Below, piece after piece: positions 4,678 to 64,000 of a stretch of DNA of 64,000 bases. Position numbers and translations under genes: made by a program. This DNA comes from Escherichia coli. Its GTDB lineage: Bacteria; Pseudomonadota; Gammaproteobacteria; Enterobacterales; Enterobacteriaceae. The notes under the pieces are model-generated. The model did not search any database. It was not told where the DNA came from and saw only the letters and a program-made list of their open reading frames with translations. Location: NCBI RefSeq assembly GCF_003790525.1, contig NZ_CP033635.1. One strand, written 5' to 3'. Positions within the stretch are counted from its first letter, which is position 1. Every line of letters starts with the position of its first letter.

Positions 4678-4683
4678 TGAACA

Positions 4684-4720
4684 CCTCATCCTGAGGGGGG
4701 CCCTGTCAGGATGAGGTGCA
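4684..4720. terminator. Bidirectional hairpin between convergent MFS gene and sapF
   Basis: Perfect 13-bp inverted repeat CACCTCATCCTGA/TCAGGATGAGGTG with GC-rich loop, in the 48-bp gap between convergent stops. Confidence 0.5.
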
Positions 4721-10651: not shown

Positions 10652-10690
10652 GCGCGGCGCATTACCCTCAGGCAGGATAATGCGCCGCGC
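10652..10690 (-). terminator. GC-rich hairpin 3' of puuP (terminator or REP-like)
   Basis: 13-bp arms GCGCGGCGCATTA / TAATGCGCCGCGC immediately after the puuP stop; A/T-rich tail but no clean U-run. Confidence 0.4.
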
Positions 10691-40979: not shown

Positions 40980-41014
40980 AATATGCCTGATGGTGCAACA
41001 CCATCAGGCATATT
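40980..41014. terminator. Hairpin between convergent tyrR and tpx
   Basis: Perfect 16-bp inverted repeat AATATGCCTGATGGTG-caa-CACCATCAGGCATATT. Confidence 0.6.
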
Positions 41015-41017
41015 AAC

Positions 41018-41524
41018 TTATGCTTTCAGTACAGCCAGAGCTGCTTCGTAATCCGGCTCGGTGGTGATTTCATCCACCAGCTGGCTGAAAATCACATTGT
41101 CATTTTCATCAATAACCACAACGGCACGCGCTGCCAGACCTTTCAGTGGGCCATCAGCAATTGCCACACCGTAGGCTTGCAGGAATTCAGCGTTACGGAA
41201 AGTGGAGAGGGTGATAACGTTGTTCAGACCTTCTGCGCCGCAGAAACGAGACTGGGCGAACGGCAGATCGGCAGAGATACACAGCACAACGGTGTTGTCG
41301 ATCTCGGTTGCCAGTTGGTTAAACTTACGTACTGATGCGGCGCAAACACCGGTATCAATACTCGGGAAAATGTTCAGCACTTTGCGTTTACCCGCAAACT
41401 GACCGAGGGTGACGTCAGACAGATCTTTTGCCACGAGAGTAAAAGTCTGCGCTTTGCTACCCGCCTGCGGGATGGAATTGGCGACTGTAACCGGGTTGCC
41501 CTGGAAATGAACGGTTTGTGACAT
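41018..41524 (-). CDS. tpx: Thiol peroxidase Tpx
   Basis: 168-aa atypical 2-Cys peroxiredoxin ORF. Confidence 0.93.
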
Positions 41525-48218: not shown

Positions 48219-48230
48219 TGTGATGGGAAC

Positions 48231-48258
48231 TGGCGTTACCCTTGTGGATAACGCCAGT
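48231..48258. terminator. Hairpin between convergent mppA and ynaI
   Basis: CTGGCGTTA ... TAACGCCAG inverted repeat. Confidence 0.5.
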
Positions 48259-49300: not shown

Positions 49301-49423
49301 TGTTTTATCAGGCTCCTCCAGATAATTGTCGTCATGCCGGAAACCCCTGGCGGGGCTATTTTACCGCGACAATTCATTCAGATCATCAATAGTCAGGGAA
49401 GTAAGTAGCAACATTAGCTAACA

Positions 49424-49439
49424 AATCAATGCATTGATT
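49424..49439. promoter_or_regulatory. Perfect 16-bp palindrome in divergent ynaI-ynaJ region
   Basis: AATCAATGCATTGATT; about 105 bp upstream of ynaJ, about 125 bp upstream of ynaI. Confidence 0.4.
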
Positions 49440-49543
49440 GTAAATCCAGCTAAGAGGTGAGGTTTTCAGAGCAGACAAGAGTGAAATGTCATGGTATTGT
49501 TACGTTTAGGTAACAAGAAATTTGTCTGCACAAGGATTACATC

Positions 49544-49850: not shown

Positions 49851-50801
49851 TTAATCGTCTTCTTCGTCATCCAGTTCAACGGGTGTCTGATACTGGTCAG
49901 GTTTAATGACCAGCAGGTCGCAGCGAAGATGATCAATCACCTGTTCCGCCGTGTTGCCAAGGAATGCTGCTGAAATACCGGTGCGTCCGACCGTGCCCAG
50001 AACCACAATCCCCGCCTGTAAATGCTCCGCCAAATCAGGAATCACCTCTTCTGGCAGACCTTTTTCTACGTGCGTCATGTTTTCATTAATGCCGAATTTC
50101 TGCCGCAGGGCTTTCATTGCCAGCAAATGTTGCCCACGAATGGCATCGTTATAAACGCTCGGATCAAATTCCGGCAGTTCAATCGCGATATTAATTGGCG
50201 TTACCGGATAAGCGCCAACCAGATGAACTTCGGTATGGTTGACTTGTTCCGCCAGTTCGATCGTCTCTTTGACCAGTTTTTCATTGAGCGCATTATGGTA
50301 CGGTTCTTCACTGGCGAGATTCACCGCCACCAGCGCCTTACCCCCTTCCGGCCACGGCTGGTCTTTCACCATCCACACGGGGCTTGGGCATTTGCGTAAC
50401 AGATGCCAGTCCGTTGGCGTAAAAATCACCGCTTCCAGACGGTCATGTTGGTGCGCCATTTTTAGCACCAAATCGTGCCCGCCGCTGATCACTTCCTGAA
50501 TGATGGCTTCGAAAGGACGGTTATGCCAGACCACTTTAATTTCAATGGGAACGCCAGCATTGAGATAATATTTTGCCTGCTCGTGGATCCAGGCTGTACG
50601 CTGGCTGATGACGCCCTGACGCATAGCGGTACGTTCGTCCGGAGAGAGCAGGGTGGTCATTTCGTATGAGAAGTCATAGATCGGCAAAAAGGCTTTAATT
50701 TTGCCACCAATCCGTTGATGTAAATAAACAGCTCGCCGCAATGCTGGTTGGTCGTCCTGGTTAGGATCGATAACAACGAGCATGTTCTGATACATAGCCA
50801 T
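49851..50801 (-). CDS. uspE: Universal stress protein E (tandem Usp)
   Basis: Start set at [10 protein letters not shown] (316 aa). Confidence 0.9.
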
Positions 50802-50952
50802 ACAGGGTCTCCTTACAACAACTGTCAACGCAGTTTGTAATTAAAAGATTAACCCATATCTGGTGAATGAAACAGTGATGAACCTTCTGTCAGATCAATA
50901 AATCAGAAAAATTTAATGATATGACAGAAGGATAGTGAGTTATGCGGAAGAA

Positions 50953-51705
50953 TCAGGCAACGTTACGCGTGTGACCAGCAAGCTGGGCCAGCGCATCGTT
51001 ATTTTCGATGGTGATGTATTTACCTTTGACTGCCAGCATACCGCTTTTCTGGAAGCGGCCCAGCAGACGGCTGATGGTTTCAACCGTCAGGCCCAGATAG
51101 TTACCGATATCACCACGAGTCATCGTCAGGCGGAATTCACGAGGGGAGAAGCCGCGTTGGGCAAAACGACGGGACAGGTTGTAGATGAATGCAGCCAGAC
51201 GTTCCTCGGCATTTTTCTTCGACAACAGCAGGATCATGTCCTGATCGCCTTTGATTTCACCGCTCATCAGACGCATCATCTGCTGACGCAGATTCGGCAT
51301 TTTACCGGACAAATCGTCCAGCGTTTCGAACGGGATTTCACATACCATCGAGGTTTCCAGCGCCTGAGCGAAGCTCGGGTGATGACCGCTGCCGATAGCG
51401 TCAAATCCCACCAGGTCGCCTGCTAAATGGAAACCAGTGATTTGCTCGTCGCCTTGCTCAGTGATGGTATAACTTTTAATCGTACCGGAGCGGATGGCAT
51501 AAAGCGATTTAAGTTCATCACCAGCCTTAAACAGCGTCTGGCCTTTCTGAATAGGCTTCTTCCGCTCAATGATATTATCAAGCTGATCAAGCTCATGTTC
51601 GTTGAGTGTGAACGGGATGCAAAGCTGGCTGATGCTGCAATCCTGGCAATGGATAGCACAACCGCCAGACTGAATGCGCCGTATAATTCGCTTTTCCGGG
51701 ATCAT
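50953..51705 (-). CDS. fnr: Fumarate/nitrate reduction regulator FNR
   Basis: Start set at [10 protein letters not shown] (250 aa); N-terminal Cys cluster for [4Fe-4S], CRP-family HTH. Confidence 0.95.
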
Positions 51706-63192: not shown

Positions 63193-64000
63193 TTATTTCA
63201 CTTCAACCACATTCAGTCGTAACTCATCCAACTGATTTTCATCTTCTTCAGGCTGCCAACCCGCCGGTTGTAGAGGGATCTCTTCGCGATCAAACGCCAG
63301 ATCACCCCCGTTAACCACTTCAGAACCGTGGGTAATGCCTTTGAAATCGAACAGGTTGGTATCGCACAGATGCGATGGCACCACATTCTGCATCGCGCTG
63401 AACATCGTCTCGATACGCCCCGGATAACGTTTATCCCAGTCACGCAACATGTCAGCAATCACCTGACGTTGCAGGTTAGGCTGTGAACCGCACAGGTTGC
63501 ACGGAATAATCGGGAACGCTTTTGCATCGGCAAAGCGCTGAATATCTTTCTCGCGGCAGTAGGCCAGCGGGCGAATCACGATATGTTTGCCATCATCGCT
63601 CATCAGTTTCGGAGGCATACCTTTCATCTTGCCGCCGTAGAACATATTTAAGAACAGCGTTTGCAGGATATCGTCACGATGGTGACCCAACGCGATCTTC
63701 GTCGCCCCCAGTTCCGTTGCGGTGCGATAAAGGATACCGCGACGAAGACGAGAACACAGTGAGCAAGTGGTTTTGCCCTCCGGAATCTTCTCTTTCACGA
63801 TACCGTAAGTGTTCTCTTCCACAATCTTGTACTCAACGCCCAGCGTTTCAAGATACTCGGGCAGAACGTGTTCCGGAAAGCCCGGTTGTTTTTGATCGAG
63901 GTTAACAGCCACCAGCGAAAAATTGATTGGCGCGCTTTGCTGCAAATTGCGCAGAATTTCCAGCATGGTATAGCTGTCTTTACCCCCGGAGAGGCAAACC
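63193..64000 (-). CDS. ttcA: tRNA 2-thiocytidine synthetase TtcA, 3' portion (N-terminus beyond window)
   Basis: Minus-strand frame open to the right edge; PP-loop ATPase family with CxxC pairs; stop at 63193. Confidence 0.85.

Follow-up and report, generated by a model that had tools for sequence, protein, structure and literature searches.

The inverted repeat between fnr and uspE in this Escherichia coli sequence gives rise to an RNA hairpin, which we regard with considerable confidence as a barrier to exonucleases at the 3' end of the fnr mRNA and as a structure whose 3' arm would also act as an upstream element of the uspE promoter. As a stem-loop at the 3' end of fnr, the hairpin has already been published for E. 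coli K-12, and it is a real, functional and ordinary feature. Its structure, conservation and strand specificity were established here, whereas the 3' ends were mapped by others in K-12. The second use of the 3' arm, which is deduced from the sequence and its conservation, appears to be new as far as the literature was searched.

The window, that is, the whole stretch of 64,000 nucleotides that was analysed, comes from an E. coli strain other than K-12, and the genes around the hairpin are ynaI, ynaJ, uspE, fnr, ogt and abgT. On the minus strand, fnr lies upstream of uspE, and transcription passes from fnr to uspE through a gap of 151 bp. The FNR protein encoded in the window is 100% identical to that of K-12, and E. 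coli genomes annotate the gene as fnr. Positions published for K-12 were converted by K-12 = window + 1,347,821, and the features discussed below are collected in Table 1. The synteny of fnr and uspE was nearly universal among the Enterobacterales loci examined, which were 80 loci obtained by a scan for FNR. In K-12, an IS5 element (insH4) was observed between ynaI and ynaJ (positions 924-2365 of locus L001), and the corresponding part of the window (49301-49543) carries no insertion.

Table 1. Features of the fnr-uspE region and their positions in the window
Feature	Position	Strand	Remarks
fnr coding sequence	50953..51705	-	250 aa; stop codon TGA at 50953-50955; from the list of open reading frames and its translation
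uspE coding sequence	49851..50801	-	316 aa; ATG at 50801
RNA stem-loop at the fnr mRNA 3' end	50883..50931	-	20 bp including one G·U pair; two 1x1 mismatches
5' arm, CCUUCUGUCAUAUCAUUAAAU	50911..50931	-	varies between genera, with complementarity to the 3' arm kept
Unpaired segment, UUUUCUG	50904..50910	-	the fold adds one U·G pair, which leaves a 5-nt loop
3' arm, AUUUAUUGAUCUGACAGAAGG	50883..50903	-	inner part nearly invariant across Enterobacterales
Single common polymorphism of the hairpin within E. coli	50890	-	A in the window (U-A pair); G in K-12 and four sampled genomes
Loop and 3'-arm motif, CTGATTTATTGATCTGAC (CTGATTTATTGATCYGRC)	50889..50906	-	-68 to -51 from the uspE start; putative upstream element
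CTGTTTCA block over the uspE -35 region	50868..50875	-	putative position -37 to -30; nearly invariant; T82, G83 and T84 invariant
Probable uspE -10 hexamer, TAATCT	50846..50851	-	T and A invariant in the alignment; 7 nt upstream of the start site
uspE transcription start	50838	-	K-12 1398659; RNA begins ACA (PMC10667835, Supplementary Table 1); the sequence agrees
PNPase trimming stop	50880	-	K-12 1398701 (PMC10667835, Supplementary Tables 3, 4 and 6)
RNase II trimming stop	50878	-	K-12 1398699 (PMC10667835, Supplementary Tables 3, 4 and 6)
RNase E-dependent 3' end	50877	-	K-12 1398698 (PMC10667835, Supplementary Tables 3, 4 and 6)
RNase II trimming start	50874	-	K-12 1398695 (PMC10667835, Supplementary Tables 3, 4 and 6)
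PNPase trimming start	50799	-	K-12 1398620; at the uspE start codon (PMC10667835, Supplementary Tables 4 and 6)

In the initial annotation, the region had been described as a 10-bp inverted repeat at 50886-50934 with an AT-rich spacer of 29 bp, which was thought to be either an unusual terminator with a large loop or a dimeric operator. The repeat is present, with CCTTCTGTCA at 50883-50892 and TGACAGAAGG at 50922-50931 on the plus strand and a spacer of 29 nt containing 17% G+C, and the span given for it was 3 nt too far to the right. The spacer, on the other hand, is not a large loop. Most of it is self-complementary and forms the inner stem of the hairpin, which is AT-rich, and the repeat extends inward to the 21-nt arms of Table 1, found by a repeat finder to be 90% complementary with 7 nt between them. 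The hairpin starts 22 nt past the fnr stop codon. When folded as minus-strand RNA, the region reached -23.5 kcal/mol versus -10.7 +/- 2.3 kcal/mol for dinucleotide shuffles (z = -5.5), and none of 200 shuffles was as good. Perfect 10-bp inverted repeats with spacers of up to 40 nt occurred eight times in the window, against 2.3 +/- 1.4 times in dinucleotide shuffles. Thus, a bare 10-bp repeat is not rare, whereas the extended hairpin is far beyond chance.

Within the species, the 76-nt hairpin region was identified once per genome in 5399 of the 5426 complete E. coli genomes; 1276 of these 5399 were identical to the window, and the other 4123 had 95-99% identity. Four genomes with a different allele were sampled, all from the class with 98.7% identity, and each of them differed from the window at position 50890 in the same way as K-12. 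In the five sequences checked, the G at this position forms a wobble pair (U·G) in the sense RNA and would make an A·C mismatch on the opposite strand. We also considered a dispersed repeat (REP or MITE-like) and rejected it; E. coli genomes contained the hairpin at a median of one location, and within the window the motif occurred only here. Outside the species, folding of the intergenic regions revealed a hairpin in the corresponding position behind fnr in almost all of the approximately 60 species of Enterobacterales, among them those of Yersinia, Serratia and Dickeya. The sequences of the outer stem were wholly different between genera, yet they remained complementary. Pectobacterium and Samsonia (L073-L075 and L080) had a longer spacer between fnr and uspE and a different hairpin after fnr, and upstream of uspE a diverged motif, TTTTGTTATTCTGCGGC, replaced TTTATTGATCCGGC.

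Covariation was scored in 57 aligned hairpin segments on a structure of 24 pairs that had been transferred from single-sequence folds, with slid partner columns and shuffled columns as controls. Standard pairs were present in 75.9% of the cells, compared with 29-45% when the partner column was slid by 1-3 positions. Double-sided changes were observed in 104 cells versus 37.9 +/- 7.8 in column shuffles, with none of 500 shuffles reaching 104, and the covariation score was 0.259 versus 0.172 in shuffles and at most 0.124 in the slid versions; because the aligned sequences are phylogenetically related, the shuffle statistics overstate the significance of these differences. For instance, one stem pair was GC in 24 sequences, AU in 22 and GU in nine, and it was never AC. 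When RNAalifold was run on the MAFFT alignment of these segments, no more than 5 of the 24 pairs were predicted.

The two strands of the repeat were far from equivalent. In 49 of 53 distinct sequences the sense fold was more stable than the antisense fold (mean difference 5.6 kcal/mol), and cells with G·U outnumbered those with A·C by 163 to 60 overall and by 102 to 26 in the core. The series from Salmonella (GCC/GGC) through K-12 (GUC/GGC) to the window (GUC/GAC) represents a compensatory path by way of a wobble on the sense strand. Since neither a bias for G·U nor an asymmetry of fold energy has any meaning for duplex DNA, the pairing has been selected in the RNA of the fnr and uspE strand. 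Thus, selection acts on RNA pairing of the transcribed strand and not on a DNA palindrome.

Published data show where the fnr mRNA ends. A SEnd-seq study of RNases in E. coli K-12 chose the fnr-uspE intergenic region to illustrate trimming by PNPase (Fig. 3g,h of PMC10667835) and recorded a transcription unit ogt-fnr-uspE. According to this study, the transcript is cut by RNase E in the fnr-uspE region, PNPase then digests it over 81 nt as far as a stable stem-loop, and a further 4 nt are taken off by RNase II (PMC10667835). When the published positions were mapped onto the hairpin, whose last stem base is 50883, the K-12 ends fell 3, 5, 6 and 9 nt past the stem (PMC10667835). Thus, the fnr 3' end lies at the repeat, as had been supposed before, and the repeat is conserved. 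A start of trimming 81 nt downstream implies that transcripts reading through the hairpin are needed, and therefore a role as an exonuclease barrier is favored.

On the basis of these data, the following course of events would account for the fnr 3' end. Transcription of fnr would run through the stem-loop in the fnr 3' untranslated region into uspE, and the read-through RNA would be cut downstream, which the published data place at the uspE start codon. PNPase and then RNase II would chew the RNA in the 3'-to-5' direction until they are halted by the 20-bp stem, and the product would be a stable fnr mRNA ending 3-9 nt past the stem. In this manner the hairpin would define and protect the 3' end of fnr and uncouple fnr from uspE; we infer that it stabilises the fnr mRNA. 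It should be noted that the PNPase trimming start, which the study ascribes to a cut by RNase E, is located exactly at the uspE start codon (PMC10667835), and processing there would inactivate the uspE reading frame on that fnr-uspE RNA.

The hairpin resembles the protective stem-loops found at the 3' termini of bacterial mRNAs, which include exonuclease barriers, elements of selective RNA processing and stabilisation and the stem-loops at the processed ends of Rho-dependent transcripts. As in these systems, a stable stem is located at the mature 3' end, a longer precursor is cut endonucleolytically, and PNPase and RNase II come to a halt within a few nucleotides past the stem. It differs from protective stem-loops in general in that the sequence of its 3' arm is constant and extends into the region upstream of the promoter of the next gene.

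An alternative is that most fnr 3' ends are made not by processing but by release of RNA polymerase at the hairpin, as at a Rho-independent terminator. We consider this somewhat unlikely, on a division between termination and processing that rests on one study. The hairpin is stable and stands right after the fnr stop codon, as in intrinsic terminators, and the most distal of the published ends, 9 nt past the stem, is at the usual distance of release. The E. coli tail, UUCAUCACU, received -3.24 on a tail score of the d'Aubenton-Carafa type, which also speaks for termination. However, the tail is poor in U. In the window, 3 U are present within 8 nt of the sequence after the stem (UUCAUCAC); over 58 orthologues the first 8 nt contained 3.1 U on average, with at least 5 U in only five of them; the tail of Enterobacter is AAAACUUCC. 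A consensus scan of 50600-51200 called neither a terminator nor a sigma-70 promoter. In addition, trimming by PNPase from 81 nt downstream needs read-through, and the published study lists the end as RNase E-dependent and records a unit that continues into uspE (PMC10667835). The fnr hairpin is therefore unlike an intrinsic terminator in having no U-tract, an AT-rich inner stem and documented read-through into uspE. With a poor and unconserved U-tract, it is not a canonical intrinsic terminator. What survives of the large-loop terminator first proposed is its place at the fnr 3' end, as the loop has only 5-7 nt on a stem of 20 bp and the canonical U-tract is missing. The absence of a U-tract is probably explained by the uspE promoter abutting the stem, because the uspE -35 region is reached 8 nt past the stem and leaves no room. 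The hairpin may still be a weak non-canonical terminator that releases transcripts 9 nt past the stem, which is compatible with its role as a barrier.

A natural experiment is provided by eight genomes with insertions between fnr and uspE. At four of these loci (L007, L041, L051 and L056), fnr keeps a hairpin, and at the other four (L019, L034, L035 and L040) it is followed by a canonical terminator with a GC stem and a U-tract. The same kind of terminator was present after fnr at two further loci where uspE was out of range (L015 and L020). Thus, where fnr is no longer next to uspE, a canonical terminator has taken over from the hairpin or been added to it, and termination after fnr is evidently wanted, which is a point in favor of release of polymerase at the hairpin. 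At all six loci with such terminators, the GC-rich hairpins and their U-tracts were located about 20-70 nt after the fnr stop. The outer stem in L035 looks as if it were derived from the ancestral GCCAGAT/ATCTGGC stem and now carries a U-tract.

The uspE side of the same loci behaves differently. Seven of the eight separated loci retain CTGATTTATTGATCTGRC upstream of uspE at the usual distance and without the 5' arm. The copy next to uspE folds at -6 to -15 kcal/mol in seven of the eight, compared with about -12 to -28 kcal/mol, mostly -18 to -27 kcal/mol, for the contiguous arrangement. These loci therefore point to two separable functions, in which the structure belongs to fnr and the sequence to the uspE promoter.

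Conservation around the uspE promoter is consistent with this division. As the scan called no promoter here, the uspE promoter rests on the published start site together with conservation. The -10 block reads TAMTCT across the alignment, at -13 to -8 from the uspE start. CTGTTTCA, although nearly invariant, is a poor match to a sigma-70 -35 hexamer (GTTTCA, 3 of 6 positions). Its reverse complement contains TGAAAC, which may be a half-site like those of Cra or OmpR. Farther upstream, the 3' arm of the hairpin, ATTTATTGATCYGGC, was nearly invariant in an alignment of the whole intergenic region, at -66 to -46 from the uspE start. In the core, the information content was 1.65 bits per column for the 3' arm and 1.02 bits per column for the 5' arm. 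In 62 of 65 loci, a constant spacing of 16-17 nt separated the motif core T[TG]G[AG]T[CG] from CTGTTTCA. In these respects the region is similar to upstream promoter elements and class I activator sites near -60, which likewise consist of an asymmetric conserved block with constant spacing to the core promoter, and in both cases the block stays with the promoter, here that of uspE, after rearrangements.

Judging from these patterns, the loop and the 3' arm probably constitute an asymmetric upstream element of the uspE promoter as well. In the most likely arrangement, the 3' arm would be the uspE upstream element and the 5' arm would evolve so as to stay complementary to it. A more specific proposal, to which we would give about even chances, is that the same 49-nt segment carries a dual code from Escherichia to Yersinia, namely, an RNA hairpin and a DNA site (CTGATTTATTGATCYGRC in Table 1) for a putative regulator of uspE. 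According to this proposal, the 5' arm might have evolved its complementarity to a promoter element that was already in place. A comparison of the conserved arm by eye with the consensus sequences of CRP, FNR, IHF, Fis, the DnaA box, sigma-54, the UP element, FadR, Cra and PhoB gave no convincing match. The literature search yielded neither a specific regulator of the uspE promoter nor FNR ChIP signal or IHF binding at uspE. A weak DnaA ChIP signal has been reported "upstream uspE", during amino-acid starvation only and without coordinates, and one published paper mentions uspE only as the locus where a reporter cassette was inserted.

Many enterobacterial mRNA 3' ends give rise to regulatory RNAs. 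The hairpin might therefore be the 3' module of a regulatory RNA derived from the fnr 3' untranslated region, or a docking site for RNA-binding proteins such as ProQ, with regulation in trans as the selected function; conservation of the 3' arm does exceed what pairing needs. We consider this quite improbable. A search of the region against Rfam 15 gave no family at the gathering score, the matches below it being chance hits to families of eukaryotes (snoZ165, and mir-1000 with 22 bits where 50 are required), and the literature search found neither a small RNA from the fnr 3' untranslated region nor a ProQ target there. There is no U-tail for Hfq. Moreover, the motif is kept in front of uspE even where the hairpin is missing and fnr is distant, which suggests a role at the DNA level that is tied to uspE.

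The other function originally proposed for the repeat was that of a palindromic DNA operator, in which a dimeric regulator of uspE (or fnr) would bind both arms as half-sites. The location of the repeat, at -45 to -93 from the uspE start, would suit an operator, one arm is strongly conserved in sequence, and the inner arms are AT-rich, for example TCGATAAATT in Enterobacter. The last motif presumably resembles sites of the H-NS or IHF type. However, several results contradict this idea. The arms are unequally conserved, as the information contents given above indicate, and the outer stems differ completely between genera while complementarity is kept. The preference for G·U among the mismatches of one strand would mean nothing to duplex DNA, and the five E. 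coli sequences with the other allele carry an asymmetric C/A where the window is symmetric. Finally, uspE keeps only one arm at seven of the eight separated loci. On this evidence, the dimeric operator was abandoned as very improbable.

That the repeat is a chance inverted repeat without function has a negligible probability. In favor of chance, a sequence of 64 kb should contain some two perfect 10-bp inverted repeats with short spacers at random. The stability of the full hairpin, its conservation and covariation across an order of bacteria, its near-invariance in the 5399 E. coli genomes and the experimentally mapped 3' ends at its base all speak against chance.

A barrier hairpin at this site explains how the mRNA of fnr, a global oxygen regulator, has a defined and stable end despite co-transcription with the stress gene uspE, as published for K-12. 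Our data make a modest comparative addition, that is, the element has been maintained as sense-strand RNA across Enterobacterales. That the downstream half of the hairpin would double as a conserved uspE upstream element points to a cis-element of uspE and offers an example of one sequence under simultaneous constraint as RNA structure and as DNA motif, which is of modest general interest. Regulation of usp genes has so far been attributed mainly to ppGpp and metabolic signals. If the dual code proved true, the factor concerned could supply the missing link between a transcription factor and the regulation of usp genes.

Several other observations were made in the window. The uspE 5' untranslated region (50802-50838, minus strand) has 37 nt and hardly varies across Enterobacterales. 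Within it, AACUG (50835-50831) pairs with CAGUU (50824-50820) to give a small hairpin just upstream of the Shine-Dalgarno sequence AAGGAG (50814-50809). These features suggest that uspE is controlled at the level of translation or stability. An alternative pairing between the Shine-Dalgarno region of uspE and the 5' arm of E. coli was also considered and was rejected, as the similarity is confined to the E. coli lineage. Other perfect inverted repeats of at least 10 bp with short spacers were present in the window at 40980-41020, 4682-4718, 10652-10690, 48229-48258 and 63696-63748. The repeat at 40980/41005 has 16 bp, and that at 48229/48249 is located just 3' of ynaI; these other inverted repeats are probably terminators.
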